Positions 1 through 5,748 of a stretch of 5,803 nucleotides of DNA are shown piece after piece. This stretch comes from a virus. Lineage: Duplodnaviria; Heunggongvirae; Uroviricota; Caudoviricetes. Below the pieces are notes generated by a model that was given only the letters and a program-made list of their open reading frames with translations, had not been told where the DNA came from and searched no databases. The stretch lies in IMG/VR virus record IMGVR_UViG_2537562152_000014. One strand, written 5' to 3'. Made by a program: the position numbers and the translations under genes. Each line of letters opens with the position of its first letter. Position 1 is the first letter of the stretch.

Positions 1-287
1 CTGTGACTGCGCATACGGGCCACCAGCAGAGGCGGCATTGCCTTTTCGATCGCCGGTAACAGAGCCTGCATTTTTTCAACTGCATCAGGGGTGTCTTTCT
101 CTATCCAGCGGAAAATTTTCTGGGTATTGCGAGCCAGGGCTTCCGGATGGCTGTCGTCGTACAGTTCAGGAAACGTCATACCCAACTCAAAATAAGCCTG
201 GGTTATTCCAGCTGCCGGAACTTTTTCGCCATCAGGACGCGCCCAGGCATTCATCGCCATGCGGATGTGTTCATGCTTGATTTTCAT
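1..287 (-). CDS. YdaT-like / CII-position prophage early regulatory protein (partial; C-terminus lies beyond the window start)
   Basis: Minus-strand frame is open from ATG at 287-285 to position 1 (95 codons, no stop); it is absent from the ORF track because no stop falls in the window. Translation begins MKIKHEHIRMAMNAWARPDGEKVPAAGITQAYFELGMTFPELYDDSHPEALARNTQKIFRWIEKDTPDAVEKMQALLPAIEKAM. A G-run SD (GGGGGG, complement of 292-297) lies 4 nt upstream. The start overlaps the last 17 nt of the cro-like gene. The MKIKHEHI N-terminus and the position directly after cro match my recollection of Rac YdaT; this is not verified by alignment. Confidence 0.55.
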   Translation of the reverse strand, partial: MKIKHEHIRMAMNAWARPDGEKVPAAGITQAYFELGMTFPELYDDSHPEALARNTQKIFRWIEKDTPDAVEKMQALLPAIEKAMPPLLVARMRSH

Positions 288-513
288 GAATCCCCCCTTG
301 GTTAGAAGGCGGATTATGATCAGAATCGGGAATGACAACCGTCGGTATGTGTAACTCATATTTGAGCGCCCCGGCAGTGACTGCCTGAATTAGCAACGCC
401 CATTTCCACGGAACGTCTTCCCCCCACATGCTGACTGTGGTTTTTGACGTTCCTAGAGCGGCGGCTGTTTTAACAACTCCGCCAAAATAGCCTAATACTT
501 CTGATTTTTTCAT
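271..513 (-). CDS. Cro-like HTH transcriptional regulator (DicC/YdaS-like)
   Basis: ORF-track ORF 271..561 trimmed to the ATG at 513-511, which has a GGAG SD 6 nt upstream; the upstream ATGs at 561 and 525 have none. The 80-aa product MKKSEVLGYFGGVVKTAAALGTSKTTVSMWGEDVPW... has an HTH-like core and the LxYFGG opening typical of DicC/YdaS-type Cro proteins. It is divergent from the CI-type gene, the classic genetic-switch layout. Confidence 0.7.
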   Translation of the reverse strand: MKKSEVLGYFGGVVKTAAALGTSKTTVSMWGEDVPWKWALLIQAVTAGALKYELHIPTVVIPDSDHNPPSNQGGIHENQA

Positions 514-604
514 GAGTCGCTCCATAAAACTGAACGCCAAAAGTTTAATAATCAAAACCAAAGAAAGTCAAGAAACAAAACCATCTGTGTTTTAAAATCA
601 AAAC
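514..604. promoter_or_regulatory. Divergent promoter/operator region between cro-like and cI-like genes (OR/PR/PRM analogue)
   Basis: 91-bp AT-rich intergenic between divergent repressor genes. CAAAAC occurs three times at 23-bp spacing (553-558, 576-581, 599-604) within longer related units (550-559, 573-582, 596-604). An inverted repeat TGTTTT-N6-AAAACA at 588-605 overlaps the cI start codon. A candidate -10 TAAAAT (593-598) sits 6 nt before the cI ATG. A candidate minus-strand promoter for cro has -35 TTGACT (complement of 566-571) and a -10-like TATTAA/TTAAAC (complement of 543-550). Confidence 0.5.
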
Positions 605-1243
605 ATGAACAAGCAAACAATATCTGAACGCATAACCCAACGTATGCATGCGCTAAACTTGAAAGGCAAAGACCTTGTCAATGCCACTGGCGCATCAAAA
701 GGCTCCGTAAGTCAATGGATGAACGGTGGAGGAGCGCCGTCCTCGCGTTACATAAGTTCACTGGCAAAGATATTGAAAGTAAACGAAAATTGGCTTCTTA
801 ATGGAGGAGAGTTAAATACAGGTGATTCGCTTGATCTATCTTTACCGCCGATAAAAACGGTTCCGCTACTATCACTTCAGCAGGCAGCAAGCTGGAGTGA
901 TTATATGAAAAATTCCTCAATAACCTCTTGTGTGCAGCTTGTCGGAGAAATCCCGGCCAATACCTTTGCTGTTGTTCTAGAGAGTGACAGTATGTCGACA
1001 TCTGGTGGTGGAGTTTCCATCCCAAATGGTTCAACAGTTTTTGTTGATCCCGATCGAATCGTACAACCAGGAAATATTGTCCTTGCCTTACCCAAAGGGA
1101 CCACAACGCCTGTCATTCGCAAACTGGAGATAGAAGGGCCGGATATTCTTTTAGTCCCCACGAATCCTCGCTACCCTTCAATTATGCTGGATGATCTATC
1201 TTGCATATTGGGAGTATGCTTTAAAATTCAACAAGATATTTAA
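605..1243 (+). CDS. CI-type prophage repressor: N-terminal HTH domain plus C-terminal LexA-like S24 autopeptidase domain
   Basis: 212-aa ORF. The N-terminal segment (ISERITQRMHALNLKGKDLVNATGASKGSVSQWMNGGGAPS) has an XRE-type HTH pattern. The C-terminal part carries the S24 catalytic signature: Ser in ESDSMS and a Lys about 40 residues later in VIRKLE. An in-frame TAA at 593-595 leaves 605 as the first possible start, and no SD precedes it. Confidence 0.85.
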   Translation: MNKQTISERITQRMHALNLKGKDLVNATGASKGSVSQWMNGGGAPSSRYISSLAKILKVNENWLLNGGELNTGDSLDLSLPPIKTVPLLSLQQAASWSDYMKNSSITSCVQLVGEIPANTFAVVLESDSMSTSGGGVSIPNGSTVFVDPDRIVQPGNIVLALPKGTTTPVIRKLEIEGPDILLVPTNPRYPSIMLDDLSCILGVCFKIQQDI

Positions 1244-1307: not shown

Positions 1308-1356
1308 AATGTTTTGATAAAAAAACATTGACCTTAAATGTTCGTTTTTCTAAACT
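1308..1356 (+). promoter_or_regulatory. PL-like promoter of the early-left (ydfA-dicF-dicB) operon with an overlapping operator palindrome
   Basis: -35 TTGACC (1328-1333), 17-bp spacer, -10 TAAACT (1351-1356). A perfect 8-bp inverted repeat AATGTTTT (1308-1315) / AAAACATT (1322-1329) with a 6-bp spacer overlaps the -35, and a further AATGTT half-site lies at 1337-1342. The core TGTTTT-N6-AAAACA is the same as the palindrome at 588-605. Confidence 0.45.
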
Positions 1357-1535
1357 TCATTCATTCCCTCACCCCGCCCCACAGAATGCAGGGCAATACT
1401 TCGAGTTACCAGGCAGTGGTCAGGGGTTAAGTAGCCAGCCCGAGGCGTAAGAACATGACGGCAGGGTTCAACTTTAATAACTATGCAGCAGGTTTTTGTT
1501 CCGCTACCCCGGCGTTAAGGGGAAATGAGGTCAAC

Positions 1536-1688
1536 ATGGATACGCTCAATCTTGGCAACAACGAATCTCTGGTATGTGGCGTGTTCCCCAACCAGGACGG
1601 TACGTTCACCGCGATGACGTATACCAAAAGCAAAACGTTTAAAACTGAAGCTGGCGCGCGTCGCTGGTTAGCCAGAAACACTGACTGA
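1536..1688 (+). CDS. ydfA: DUF1391-family small prophage protein (YdfA-like)
   Basis: 50-aa product MDTLNLGNNESLVCGVFPNQDGTFTAMTYTKSKTFKTEAGARRWLARNTD from ATG 1536 with GAGG SD (1527-1530) 5 nt upstream. The ORF track extends it to 1455, but that start has only a weaker, more distant GAGG. Size and position (first gene after the repressor, in the dicB operon) match my recollection of K-12 ydfA. The stop overlaps the next gene's RBS. Confidence 0.6.
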   Translation: MDTLNLGNNESLVCGVFPNQDGTFTAMTYTKSKTFKTEAGARRWLARNTD

Positions 1689-1699
1689 TGAGGTTGACG

Positions 1700-2338
1700 A
1701 TGGAATTTAAAGATTTACCTCCTTCAATCCAGGAGATTGCAGCACACACACTTCGTCATCGTCTGAACGAACTTGAATTGGAATCGGTAACGAAAAAAGA
1801 CACTGATAATATGGCTCGTAATGTGCGCGATGCGTTTACCGGATTGTATTTCTGTGCGTCTATAAATAAACACGACTCAGAGAGTGTGGCAAATAAAATT
1901 GCAGAAACGACAGCGCAAAACATCAATACGAAACCAACGGAAGAAGAAATTGATCAGTTTGCTCATGATGCTGGTTTAAAAAACAAGAAAGAAAAATCGC
2001 CATATGCGGGGAACATGTTTGTTTATGACAATCTCATCAGAATTCGTGGCGAAATTCCGGCGGAATACCTGGCAAGAGTCCATCAGGCATTGCTTAAAAA
2101 TTTGGAAACAGAATTATTTGATGGCAACACTAACGGTTTCTTCATGGTATCAGGCCTTGAGAAAGACTGGGATGCAGAAAAACGCTGGAATGTTGCTACA
2201 TGGTTATTCAGTAACAGAGCCGCTGCACTGGAAGCTTCGGCATGTATTTGCGGCCTGTTCTTAACAGACCACAAATATAATCTGGATGTGTACAGTTATA
2301 TTTACGCTGAACACGGTCCACTCTGGATTGACTGGTAA
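1700..2338 (+). CDS. Hypothetical protein (212 aa), unrecognised cargo gene in the early-left operon
   Basis: Long ORF; start set at ATG 1700 (MEFKDLPPSIQ...) because GAGG (1690-1693) lies 6 nt upstream, whereas the ORF-track start at 1688 has no SD. No recognisable catalytic motif or TM segment. Sampled 60-nt stretches are about 37-40 percent GC, against about 50-63 percent in the right-hand part of the window. Confidence 0.65.
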   Translation: MEFKDLPPSIQEIAAHTLRHRLNELELESVTKKDTDNMARNVRDAFTGLYFCASINKHDSESVANKIAETTAQNINTKPTEEEIDQFAHDAGLKNKKEKSPYAGNMFVYDNLIRIRGEIPAEYLARVHQALLKNLETELFDGNTNGFFMVSGLEKDWDAEKRWNVATWLFSNRAAALEASACICGLFLTDHKYNLDVYSYIYAEHGPLWIDW

Positions 2339-2548
2339 TTATAAGGAAACACCAGCAGGGCCGCGGCGACCAACAGAACGATTAAAATCAATAATGCCAT
2401 TATAAAGGACATTATTTAATTTATCGTCGAATGCTGATTCTGTGAGCCTCAACTCTGAATGAGTTTTTAATAACCCTGATTGCCTGAGTTGATTTACCAG
2501 GCATTCAATCTGTTTTTCAATAAGCGGATTTCTTTTTTTGTTTGGCAT
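2339..2548 (-). CDS. Hypothetical small protein (69 aa), convergent with the 212-aa gene
   Basis: The minus-strand ORF 2339..2560 contains an internal ATG at 2548-2546 preceded by a perfect GGAGG (complement of 2554-2558) with a 5-nt spacer, so the SD-supported product is MPNKKRNPLIEKQIECLVNQLRQSGLLKTHSELRLTESAFDDK... Its stop codon (2341-2339) directly abuts the stop of the plus-strand 212-aa gene (2336-2338). No family recognised. Confidence 0.5.
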   Translation of the reverse strand: MPNKKRNPLIEKQIECLVNQLRQSGLLKTHSELRLTESAFDDKLNNVLYNGIIDFNRSVGRRGPAGVSL

Positions 2549-2885
2549 TTTATCCTCCATTGAGGTTCTGGGTTAAAAATGGAGACCAACACGCTGTCAC
2601 GTGTGGTCGTGCGCCGGACACGGATAAGAATCCGGTACTGACAGTTTACTGAAAGGATATTTCCCTGAAAAGTCAGTGCATAACGCGAAAGCGTACGGCG
2701 AAGCTCTTTCCCTTAGAAGGCTTGTCGTTAGATTTCTTCGAACGTGCGCTTCCGGTTGTGGCACTCCGCGAAATGGCGCGGCGGTAAGTATGGCGGGGTT
2801 ATTCCTTCCCCATTGAGGACACCGGGTTGTCAGGTTGACCATACGCTTAAGTGACAACCCCGCTGCAACGCCCTCTGTTATCAAT

Positions 2886-2938
2886 TTTCTGGTGACGTTT
2901 GGCGGTATCAGTTTTACTCCGTGGCTGCTCTGCCGCCC
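2886..2938 (+). ncRNA. dicF: DicF small regulatory RNA (ftsZ translation inhibitor)
   Basis: TTTCTGGTGACGTTTGGCGGTATCAGTTTTACTCCGTGGCTGCTCTGCCGCCC is near-identical to the 53-nt DicF sequence of E. coli K-12 as I recall it, with possibly one substitution. It is followed by a T-run (2939-2943) and lies immediately upstream of dicB, as in the K-12 dicB operon. Confidence 0.75.
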
Positions 2939-2943
2939 TTTTT
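2901..2943 (+). terminator. DicF 3' stem-loop / intrinsic terminator-like hairpin with T-run
   Basis: GGCGG (2901-2905) can pair with CCGCC (2933-2937), enclosing an internal structure, and is followed by TTTTT (2939-2943). Transcription must read through at some frequency because dicB lies downstream. Confidence 0.5.
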
Positions 2944-3112
2944 AAAGTGAATTTTGTGATGCGGTGAATGCGGCTAAGCGCACGCGGAACAGTTAAAACC
3001 AAAAACAGTGTTATGGGTGGATTCTCTGTATCCGGCGTTAATTGTTAACTGGTTAACGTCACCTGGAGGCACCAGGCACTGCATCACAAAATTCATTGTT
3101 GAGGACGCGATA

Positions 3113-3301
3113 ATGGAAACGTTATTACCAAACGTTAATACGTCTGAAGGTTGTTTTGATATTGGTGTTCTGCTCAGTAACCGGGAGTTTACTGAAGATG
3201 CCATTAACATGAGGAAATATGAGCCTTATCTGCTCAATGATAATTCCATACTTTCCCGAATTGCTCTTCTTGAACTTGGTATTTTCGGAGAACGTCAATG
3301 A
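3113..3301 (+). CDS. dicB: DicB-like cell division inhibitor (MinC-dependent FtsZ-ring inhibitor)
   Basis: ORF-track ORF 3008..3301 trimmed to ATG 3113, which has GAGGA (3101-3105) 7 nt upstream. The 62-aa product METLLPNVNTSEGCFDIGVLLSNREFTEDAIN... matches the N-terminal half of K-12 DicB (MKTLLPNVNTSEGCFEIGV...) as I recall it, with a more divergent C-terminal half. It sits directly downstream of DicF. Confidence 0.85.
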   Translation: METLLPNVNTSEGCFDIGVLLSNREFTEDAINMRKYEPYLLNDNSILSRIALLELGIFGERQ

Positions 3302-4799: not shown

Positions 4800-5665
4800 A
4801 CGAGTAAAATCGACCCTGTACACGATTCTGTGTAAATGCCTTTTCTCAGAAGTGACCGTCCAGGCGGTCACCGAACTCGATAATAAAGCGGCTCATTGCC
4901 ATACGCCAGTCCCGCAGTGGCATCGTCCATTTCTGTGAAGCCGCCTGGATTGCCAGCCACACGACCTTTTTCACTGAGTCATCCGTCGGGAACACCTTGC
5001 GTTTTTTGATGGCATGCCGGATTACGCTGTTCAGCGACTCGATGGCGTTGGTTGTGTAGATGACTTTGCGGATATCTGCCGGGTAAGCGAAGAACATCGC
5101 CAGGTTGGTCCAGTTTGCCTGCCAGCTCCGGCTTATCTGCGGGTAGCGACTGTCCCAGGCGCTGGCGAACGCTTCCAGCGCCTGCTGGCCTGCTTCTTCT
5201 GTGGGGGCCTGGTAGATGGCTTTCAGGTCGCGGGTGACGGCTTTGTAGTCCTTCCAGGAAACGAACCGCAGGCTGTTGCGCACCATATGCACGATGCACA
5301 GCTGGATGCGGGCTTCCGGATACACCGTGTTGATAGCGTCCGGGAAGCCTTTCAGCCCGTCGACACAGGCTATGAGAATATCGTTCAGGCCGCGGTTTTT
5401 TAGTTCAGTCAGCACATTGAGCCAGAACTTCGCTCCCTCGTTTTCGGCCAGCCACATACCCAGTAACTCTTTCTGGCCTTCGATATTGATACCCAGTGCG
5501 AGGAATACGGATTTATTGATTACGCGACTGTCCTGCCGAACCTTCAGGACAATACAGTCAAGATAAACAATGGGATAGACCGCATCCAGTGGCCGGTTTT
5601 GCCATTCGACTACCTGCTCCATAACGGCATCGGTGACCTTCGATACCAGCGCCGGTGAGACATCA
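4800..5665 (-). mobile_element. Remnant of an IS256-family insertion sequence (3' part only); boundaries approximate
   Basis: Transposase homology spans roughly 4846-5665. The IS end should lie in the 49-bp gap between the 405-aa gene stop (4796) and the transposase stop (4846). No terminal inverted-repeat partner can be identified within the window. Confidence 0.45.
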
Positions 5666-5748
5666 GGTAAGCGTACAGCCTGAACCGTCTGGTCAGAATC
5701 TGACGAATTAGACAAAGTGGTGCCCACCAAATAAGTAGTGGGAACCAA
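4846..5748 (-). CDS. IS256/mutator-family transposase, C-terminal DDE-domain portion; probably a 5'-truncated remnant
   Basis: The product contains IS256-family hallmarks: DVSPALVSKVTDAV, the first Asp in YPIVYLDCIVLKVRQD, the second Asp in ILIACVDGLKGFPDAI, and the Glu in TTNAIESLNSVIR, followed by the KKRKVFPTDDS tail. The track start at 5748 is a TTG and the frame stays open to the window end, but residues upstream of about 5665 do not resemble the family in any minus-strand frame. Confidence 0.75.
   Translation of the reverse strand: MVPTTYLVGTTLSNSSDSDQTVQAVRLPDVSPALVSKVTDAVMEQVVEWQNRPLDAVYPIVYLDCIVLKVRQDSRVINKSVFLALGINIEGQKELLGMWLAENEGAKFWLNVLTELKNRGLNDILIACVDGLKGFPDAINTVYPEARIQLCIVHMVRNSLRFVSWKDYKAVTRDLKAIYQAPTEEAGQQALEAFASAWDSRYPQISRSWQANWTNLAMFFAYPADIRKVIYTTNAIESLNSVIRHAIKKRKVFPTDDSVKKVVWLAIQAASQKWTMPLRDWRMAMSRFIIEFGDRLDGHF

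Follow-up and report, generated by a model that had tools for sequence, protein, structure and literature searches.

Conserved 23-bp-phased repeats between divergent cro-like and cI-like genes as the proposed tripartite operator of a lambdoid prophage immunity region

Results

Genes and distribution of the immunity region

The stretch of DNA analysed here (the window, 5,803 bases) comes from a lambdoid cryptic prophage, of which it forms the immunity region; the following genes were recognized in it.

1-287, minus strand: YdaT-type CII equivalent; N-terminal 95 residues, cut by the window edge
271-513, minus strand: Cro-like regulator; 80 amino acids, P22_Cro family, 47% identical to P22 Cro
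605-1243, plus strand: cI-like repressor; 212 amino acids, N-terminal HTH and C-terminal Peptidase_S24
Further downstream: truncated recE and insertion-sequence remnants

The cro-like and cI-like genes diverge from a 91-bp gap with a G+C content of 32% (47% for the window), and the ydaT/cII gene lies downstream of cro. In the cI-like protein, Peptidase_S24 scored above the Pfam cut-off and HTH_3 just below it (21.5 versus 23 bits). The YdaT is close to 90% identical to crystallised homologues: 88 of its 95 residues match PDB 3c4r, and the YdaT of prophage CP-933P (8bt1) scores almost equally. Bases 1 to 1400 of the window matched chromosomes of E. coli O157:H7, O121, and further strains at 100% identity. 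The control region with the flanking gene starts (440-760) was present at an identity of at least 97.8% in 1,032 of 5,426 complete E. coli genomes, with a further 10 genomes at about 84% bringing the total to 1,042. It also occurs, at 96 to 98%, in three E. coli phages that were induced or predicted.

Alignment of the recognition helices (SKGSVSQW in cI and SKTTVSMW in Cro, versus SNVAISQW in P22 c2 and SDAAVSQW in P22 Cro) showed that cI and Cro of this prophage share the pattern S-K-x-(S/T)-V-S-x-W. Helix position 1 is Lys and position 3 is Ser or Thr in this pair, whereas both P22 proteins have Asn or Asp and Ala, respectively. Such a shared pattern is what would be expected of a repressor and a Cro acting on the same operators, with a specificity that would differ from that of P22. 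Protein searches with cI and Cro returned close relatives only (at least 73% identity), and a scan of genome contigs with cI yielded only three irrelevant S24 fragments (Mycobacterium and Alicyclobacillus); beyond the close relatives, P22 and one Klebsiella phage had DNA with which helices and operators could be compared. According to a published Cro "evolutionary code", Ser or Thr at helix position 3 pairs with G at base pair 5 (PMC6649833). The code was set aside as a predictor for this locus, where the base at position 5 of the sites described below is T, not G.

Three phased repeats in the divergent control region

The 91-bp gap contains three copies of a CAAAAC-containing repeat, all in the same orientation.

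550-559, plus strand: repeat unit 1, AATCAAAACC
573-582, plus strand: repeat unit 2, AAACAAAACC
596-604, plus strand: repeat unit 3, AATCAAAAC; its final base directly precedes the cI ATG (605-607)

A first-pass annotation of the window had described these repeats as phased at exactly 23 bp between the cro-like and cI-like starts, with the last unit ending on the cI ATG. The coordinates bear this out: the start-to-start distances are 23 and 23 bp, the array lies between the P22_Cro-family gene (271-513) and the HTH and S24 repressor gene, and unit 3 stops at 604 with the ATG following from 605. The additional suggestion that the units fall on one face of the helix holds only approximately, since 23 bp corresponds to 2.19 turns at 10.5 bp per turn, a rotation of about 70 degrees per step.

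CAAAAC occurs seven times on the plus strand of the 5,803 bases, three of these occurrences being the repeats. The annotation had itself cautioned that a short A-rich word might recur by chance in such a region and should be compared with a shuffled control. The 94-bp control region was shuffled with its dinucleotides preserved and searched for three phased 9-mers at any spacing of 10 to 40 bp with at least 8 of 9 columns invariant; an equally good phased triple was reached in 3 of 5,000 shuffles (P ~0.0006). A repeat search also detected a longer direct repeat of 16 nt (at 543-558 and 589-604, 46 bp apart, 88% identical [14/16]), and a pair of this quality was reached in 26 of 2,000 shuffles (1.3%); the pair alone is moderately unusual. 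A possible weak fourth unit, AAACTGAAC (527-535, plus strand), covers the predicted PR start, 23 bp ahead of unit 1. At a fixed position, a 7/9 match such as this one is not significant (P = 0.067), and the unit was left uncounted. Two other explanations of the A-rich elements were tried and rejected: at units 1 and 3, an IHF-type site (WATCAA-N4-TTR) lacks the TTR part, and the A-tracts do not have the 10- to 11-bp phase of A-tract bending.

Three proposed 16-bp sites and the candidate promoters that they overlap

A promoter consensus scan placed a candidate PR in the control region, and a candidate -10 element for PRM was recognized by reading the sequence.

542-571, minus strand: candidate promoter PR (cro-ydaT); -35 TTGACT (571-566), 18-nt spacer, -10 TAAACT (547-542)
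593-598, plus strand: candidate PRM -10, TAAAAT

Around the repeats, we propose three 16-bp sites with 7-bp spacers between them, at a centre-to-centre distance of 23 bp.

543-558: proposed OR1, GTTTAATAATCAAAAC (minus strand GTTTTGATTATTAAAC); fits GTTT-N8-AAAC, overlaps the PR -10 and spacer, invariant in all relatives
566-581: proposed OR2, AGTCAAGAAACAAAAC (minus strand GTTTTGTTTCTTGACT); half-site only, its promoter-proximal end being the PR -35 TTGACT
589-604: proposed OR3, GTTTTAAAATCAAAAC; 12/16 self-complementary, immediately before the cI ATG and overlapping the candidate PRM -10

The PR -35 thus lies within OR2, the PR -10 within OR1, and the candidate PRM -10 inside OR3. OR1 and OR3 have GTTT-N8-AAAC ends and are 14/16 identical to each other. 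Since AAWCAAAAC, the repeat as first described, reads GTTTTGWTT on the opposite strand, it makes up the better-matching half of each 16-bp site. The 16-bp pseudo-palindrome GTTT-N8-AAAC is probably the functional unit, and the repeat, GTTTTGAT(T) on the minus strand, would be that half.

The palindrome was sought by enumerating every inverted repeat with arms of 4 to 5 bp and gaps of 2 to 14 bp. In the two control regions on either side of cI, no pattern other than GTTT-N8-AAAC reached three copies: besides OR1 and OR3, a copy at 1311-1326 is the only other one in the window (0.21 expected), 17.4 kb of the strain TR01 prophage contained no further copy, and three or more copies arose in 0 of 200 shuffles. 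The alternative palindromes AAAAC-N7-GTTTT (577-593) and AAAC-N12-GTTT (527 and 573) are formed by facing ends of neighbouring sites; these registers were rejected because their centres are hypervariable spacers.

OR2 keeps the exact 23-bp phase and is invariant in all relatives, yet it is only 2/16 self-complementary and has no recognisable second half. A position matrix built from the three strong sites scored it at background, ranking it about 21st in the window, so that its sequence by itself does not qualify OR2 as a full site. OR2 may be weak and rely on cooperativity, that is, on contacts with a neighbouring dimer; its invariance could stem only from the PR -10 and -35 elements, chiefly the -35 hexamer.

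A second set of proposed sites at the candidate PL

The third copy of the palindrome lies downstream of cI, beside a second candidate promoter found by the consensus scan.

1311-1326: proposed OL2, GTTTTGATAAAAAAAC; third and last exact GTTT-N8-AAAC, ending one base upstream of the PL -35
1328-1356, plus strand: candidate promoter PL; -35 TTGACC (1328-1333), 17-nt spacer, -10 TAAACT
1340-1355: proposed OL1, GTTCGTTTTTCTAAAC; the only one-mismatch site in the window
Downstream, driven by the candidate PL: DUF1391 gene, DicF RNA (2887-2938), and a stretch annotated dicB by RefSeq

A location downstream of cI is that of PL in lambdoid phages. The PL -10 consists of the last 5 bp of OL1 and the T that follows, and OL1 overlaps it in the register that OR1 has on the PR -10. 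The two sites, the only recognisable ones here, together flank and overlap the promoter. Their centres are 29 bp apart, not 23, and they are inverted in orientation relative to the OR units. An Rfam search of the window returned DicF only, and the PL leader (1363-1460) folded as RNA was not unusually stable (z = 0.34).

In relatives of the window, conserved blocks at 1309-1332 and 1340-1356 enclose a hypervariable segment at 1334-1339. OL1 has a perfect GTTT-N8-AAAC core in one lineage (L093-L096; GTTTGTTTTTCTAAAC) and up to two changes in some relatives. OL2 is altered at position 5 in one lineage, and a few sequences have lost 1 bp of it. Conservation is therefore looser at the OL sites than at the OR sites.

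Conservation of the sites among related prophages

For comparison of the control region, 84 related loci were gathered from viral contigs, E. coli genomes, and assemblies. The 53 unique close sequences had no variable operator position and no indel across 514-604. A diverged set comprised eight sequences in four lineages, one of them from a Salmonella assembly, with cI proteins 83 to 92% and Cro proteins 80 to 87% identical to those of the window. Comparison of the repeat phase across homologous prophages, which the first-pass annotation had named as a check, gave a uniform result: the 23-bp phase is kept without indel in the 53 close relatives and in all four diverged lineages.

The four lineages vary at 16 intergenic positions (514-516, 519, 525, 531, 536-539, 559, 583-586, and 600). 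Position 559 belongs to the OR1-OR2 spacer and 583-586 to the OR2-OR3 spacer, which occurs in four different forms. Only 1 of the 16 falls within the 48 operator positions of the 91 (hypergeometric P = 3e-5), although the variable positions are clustered and the true significance is therefore weaker, though still clear. This sole in-site variant, A600G, affects operator position 5 of OR3 and turns unit 3 into AATCGAAAC in two related lineages. The CAAAAC hexamer is hence not strictly invariant because of A600G, unlike the outer GTTT...AAAC of the 16-bp site, which is. Both promoter hexamers of PR are invariant across lineages, as are the recognition helices of cI and Cro in the lineages that keep the operators.

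Part of this pattern may have a simpler source. Some conservation is to be expected anyway, because OR2, OR1, and OR3 contain the PR -35, the PR -10, and the candidate PRM -10, respectively, and one could suppose that an A-rich word recurs here by chance and that selection acts only on the overlapped promoter hexamers and the ribosome or start signals. The low G+C content of the gap and the 1.3% of shuffles that reproduce the 16-mer pair suit that explanation, as does the presence of promoter hexamers inside all three OR sites. The three-copy phased match is much rarer in shuffles, however, and GTTT-N8-AAAC is confined to OR1, OR3, and PL. The conserved blocks also extend well beyond the hexamers, OR1 and OR3 being kept over all 16 bp (save for A600G in OR3) next to hypervariable spacers, and the spacing is never altered among relatives. 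We therefore regard chance recurrence with promoter-only conservation as very unlikely. The three phased repeats are real and conserved, and A+T richness does not explain them. The first-pass suggestion that they form an array of operator half-sites resembling OR1-OR3 gains support from the position between the two divergent genes, the promoter overlap, the phase that persists while the spacers change, and the occurrence of the same motif at PL. We consider it likely that the three repeats are the better-matching halves of OR1 to OR3, the proposed operators of a lambdoid bistable switch.

Other proteins and other binding units

A different protein might read part of the same sequence. Units 1 and 3 contain AATCAA (TTGATT on the other strand, with TTGAT in OL2), which could represent half-sites for a YdaT/CII-like tetramer, instead of or besides sites for cI and Cro. 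The operator of CP-933P YdaT is TTGATT-N6-AATCAA, and incomplete repeats are also protected at higher concentration (PMC9986795); this behaviour, together with the close similarity of the present YdaT to crystallised homologues including that of CP-933P, lends the idea some plausibility. Against it, no TTGATT-N6-AATCAA palindrome is present in 514-604, and the only match in the window with at most two mismatches lies at 277-294, at the cro/ydaT junction, the orthologous place to the OM site of CP-933P. Unit 2 lacks AATCAA, and in CP-933P neither PR, PRM, nor PL responded to YdaT (PMC8630535). We rate it as highly improbable that the repeats are YdaT half-sites. The A600G variant hits the base just after the AATCAA hexamer and is neutral in this respect.

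The repeats might also be the binding units themselves. P2 C repressor reads direct repeats, and a protein of this locus could in the same way read a 9- to 10-bp direct repeat head to tail at the 23-bp phase, possibly in four units including 527-535, with the palindromic ends of OR1 and OR3 being incidental. This would account for an OR2 that has the direct-repeat half only, for the uniform direction of all units, and for the 7/9 fourth unit in phase; CP-933P, too, has been reported with four equally spaced repeats, of direct and inverted classes (PMC8630535). It would not account for the GTTT partner halves of OR1 and OR3, which are invariant though they lie outside the direct repeat, or for the PL sites, which are inverted relative to the OR units and again have the form GTTT-N8-AAAC. 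Moreover, among relatives of these proteins with solved DNA complexes, P22 c2 binds a symmetric site and the helical-fold Cro dimer of N15 a symmetric consensus OR (PMC6649833), and the fourth unit is not significant. There is accordingly only a slim chance that the direct repeat is the true unit.

The two ideas can be joined, with three or four phased direct repeats, a one-half OR2 site filled via protein contacts, and YdaT touching the TTGATT words of OR1, OR3, and OL2. If this combination, which we consider improbable, were true, the establishment regulator would be coupled directly to the maintenance switch. The reading that we prefer remains that of 16-bp operators for cI and Cro.

Probable start of cI and position of the candidate PRM

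An in-frame TAA at 593-595 precedes the cI-like gene, so that the ATG at 605 is the earliest possible start; the HTH of cI requires residues from about residue 5 onward. The gene has no Shine-Dalgarno sequence and has the TAAAAT element seven bases upstream of its ATG, and for these reasons, together with the TAA, a leaderless cI mRNA is likely. We infer a PRM start at 605, and the A of the cI ATG is the likely +1. Leaderless repressor mRNA has been stated for lambda cI and was mapped by 5'-RACE for paaR2 of CP-933P (PMC8630535).

With +1 at 605, the centre of OR2 would lie at about -31.5, where a bound protein would occlude a -35. Lambda-style activation by cI takes place from about -42. Positive autoregulation by cI at OR2 is therefore not to be assumed, and we consider such autoactivation doubtful.

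Discussion

Our combined results suggest that the control region most likely contains a tripartite operator and that the module is an ordinary lambda/P22-style switch with its own DNA specificity. Dimers of cI and of the P22-type Cro would bind the OR sites via nearly identical recognition helices. On OR1, cI, assisted by a second dimer that touches it from the weak OR2, would cover the PR -10 and -35 and thereby turn off cro, ydaT, and the replication genes, whereas Cro or excess cI on OR3 would cover the PRM -10 and start. Through OL1 and OL2, the same repressor would also control PL and the DicF/dicB operon. By analogy with such switches, we infer the binding, its cooperativity, and the order of site occupancy by cI and Cro.

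A literature search found no paper on this immunity region or its operators, the Cro/operator compilation cited in PMC6649833 being outside its scope. The architecture is textbook, and the known picture of such switches is unchanged; the operator specificity appears to be one for which we found no description in the literature. The immunity module is nevertheless a common one, carried by 1,042 of 5,426 complete E. coli genomes, O157:H7 and O121 among them, and it appears to gate a PL operon that includes the cell-division inhibitors DicF and DicB. With defined operators, one could predict which of the many lambdoid prophages in pathogenic E. coli are homo-immune or regulate each other, and correct a widespread mis-annotation of the repressor start. 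They would also provide an additional repressor/Cro/operator triple for the study of helix and half-site co-evolution in the P22-type Cro family.

The module shares with lambda a divergent cI (HTH with an S24-like C-terminal domain) and cro and a second operator set at PL. The spacing of lambda OR1-OR2-OR3 is 24 and 23 bp, and the consensus halves TAWCACCG of the lambda OR sites all point in one direction and read as direct repeats. Relative to lambda PR, OR1 is centred at about -17 and OR2 at about -41; the calculated positions here are -15.5 and -38.5. Lambda sites are 17 bp long with the symmetry axis on a base pair, whereas those proposed here are 16 bp long with the axis between base pairs, and the present Cro is of the all-helical P22 type, unlike lambda Cro in fold. 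The candidate PRM is about 13 bp closer to PR than in lambda, which places OR2 outside lambda's activating position. The OL sites lie about 750 bp from OR, compared with roughly 2.3 kb in lambda (PMC5880393).

Another of the closest known systems is P22, with which the immunity region of phage 21 can be grouped. P22 Cro belongs to the same Pfam family (PF14549) as the Cro described here, to which it is 47% identical, and the present cI is about 28% identical to c2. Both intergenic regions are short and divergent (80 bp in P22 and 91 bp here). In the P22 sequence, the operators are AGTTAAGTCATCTTAAAT, ACTAAAGATTCCTTTAGT, and ATTTAAGTGTTCTTTAAT, with centres 25 and 23 bp apart and OR3 abutting the c2 ATG; the two systems, taking the sites here as proposed, have in common three sites 23 to 25 bp apart, an axis between two base pairs, a PR -35 of TTGACT, and an OR3 that abuts the repressor ATG. 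The half-sites are related and in the same register (TTWAAGAT in P22 and GTTTTGAT here, alike at positions 2, 3, 6, 7, and 8), but GTTT-N8-AAAC does not match the P22 operator AnTnAAG-N4-CTTnAnT, and helix positions 1 and 3 differ in both proteins; the immunity is related to, yet distinct from, imm P22 and imm 21. The present sites also lie about 13 to 14 bp further upstream relative to PR, OR2 lacks a second half, and the CII is of the YdaT type. In the Klebsiella phage, whose Cro is 53% identical, the last palindrome (GTAAC-N4-GTTAC) likewise ends on the cI ATG.

The DicA/DicC switch of Qin, which acts on dicBp of the dicBF operon, has a similar cargo, with DUF1391/ydfA, DicF, and dicB behind a PL-like promoter that answers to a neighbouring immunity module with sets of three operators, as proposed here (PMC10448788). 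Its proteins differ, the present repressor being a cI with S24 rather than DicA and the present Cro not being DicC. A study of "DicC" in O157:H7 (PMC6915034) was considered as a possible account of this Cro, but its dicC primers encode MLKIDA..., a different gene.

The PaaR2/YdaS/YdaT switch of CP-933P in E. coli O157:H7 resembles the present module in host lineage and layout. It has a 97-bp intergenic region with equally spaced repeats over PR and PRM, a leaderless repressor mRNA, and repeats again at PL (PMC8630535); its repeat consensus GTTTAGTAA also starts with GTTT, and an OM-type YdaT site occurs at the cro/ydaT junction in both. PaaR2, however, is a protein of about 15 kDa that starts MQKKE and has no S24 domain, a toxin-antitoxin pair lies downstream of it, and YdaS starts MTLKEF and differs from the present Cro. 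CP-933P has four 18-bp repeats backed by EMSA, footprints, and reporter assays, compared with three proposed 16-bp sites here.

Repressor and its possible inactivation

The repressor gene cI (605-1243, plus strand) encodes SDSM and RKL motifs that, judged by eye, resemble the catalytic Ser and Lys of S24 peptidases. Around residues 93-97, its QQAASW aligns with the VQAGMF segment of lambda cI; if that segment holds the Ala111-Gly112 self-cleavage site, the repressor of the window would carry Ala-Ala at the corresponding position. A natural variant of 178 aa (L088, 2501-3037; also in L089, both related loci) has a 34-residue deletion that takes out the entire linker together with the putative cleavage site. 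In these loci, the OR sites between cro and cI are unchanged and OL2, at the candidate promoter PL, is short of one A. This variant may be a noninducible repressor. The cro gene is annotated as frameshifted in several E. coli genomes (1331-1574 in both L005 and L006), while cI and all OR sites are intact in the same genomes, as would fit prophages that have been domesticated and can no longer leave the repressed state.

The start of the repressor is misannotated in public records (window, 605-1243; also L001, 8905-9243, and L007, 2144-2743): the RefSeq/PGAP call covers only 905-1243 (112 aa, "LexA family protein"), and in the record for phage 640R1 the repressor begins at Met14. In most genomes listed, Cro is the sole annotation on the match, and the helix-turn-helix domain is therefore left unannotated. 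The misannotated start probably arises because a Shine-Dalgarno sequence is missing at ATG 605, and the internal ATG 905 is preceded by GGAG.

Elements flanking the control region

Elements near cro and cI
277-294: YdaT operator-like site TTGATTTTCATGAATCCC, GGGATT-CATGAA-AATCAA read in the ydaT direction
506-514 and 604-612: 9-nt inverted repeat, TTTTTCATG and CATGAACAA, flanking the control region
1269-1285: hairpin GCCATC-N5-GATGGC, directly past the cI stop codon

The site at 277-294 is the orthologue of OM, the footprinted YdaT operator of the O157:H7 cryptic prophage CP-933P (TTGATT-CATGAA-AATCAA), with two mismatches, both in the cro-side half. The ydaT ATG falls within its spacer, and the counterpart in strain UC4316 is TTGATTCATGAAAATCAC. 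The start codons of cro and cI lie in the arms of the inverted repeat, which is probably incidental. The 6-bp stem of the hairpin is invariant in all lineages, and its 5-nt loop varies (GTAGT, GTGGT, ATATT, and ACACT). A standard intrinsic terminator was rejected for this hairpin, because no T-run follows it on either strand.

The prophage end at 4846-5748 is decayed, as marked by a truncated IS256/Mutator-family transposase and a truncated recE; RefSeq further annotates a dinI-like gene and part of an integrase there.

The proposed PL operon

Genes downstream of PL (proposed operon, 1328-3301)
Within 1328-3301: DUF1391/ydfA gene
2887-2938: DicF RNA
About 3113-3301: dicB

A Qin-like dicBF operon seems to be transcribed from PL. 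Across lineages, the leader that separates this promoter from the start of DUF1391 (1376-1455) is more conserved than either the flank nearest the promoter or the 3' region of cI; as RNA, its stability is not unusual (z = 0.34), and Rfam gave no match to it. Whereas DicA is the repressor in Qin, the dicBF-like operon is here controlled by a cI that carries an S24 domain; should the SOS response lead to cleavage of this cI, the DicF and dicB cell division inhibitors might be induced by DNA damage in about one-fifth of E. coli genomes.
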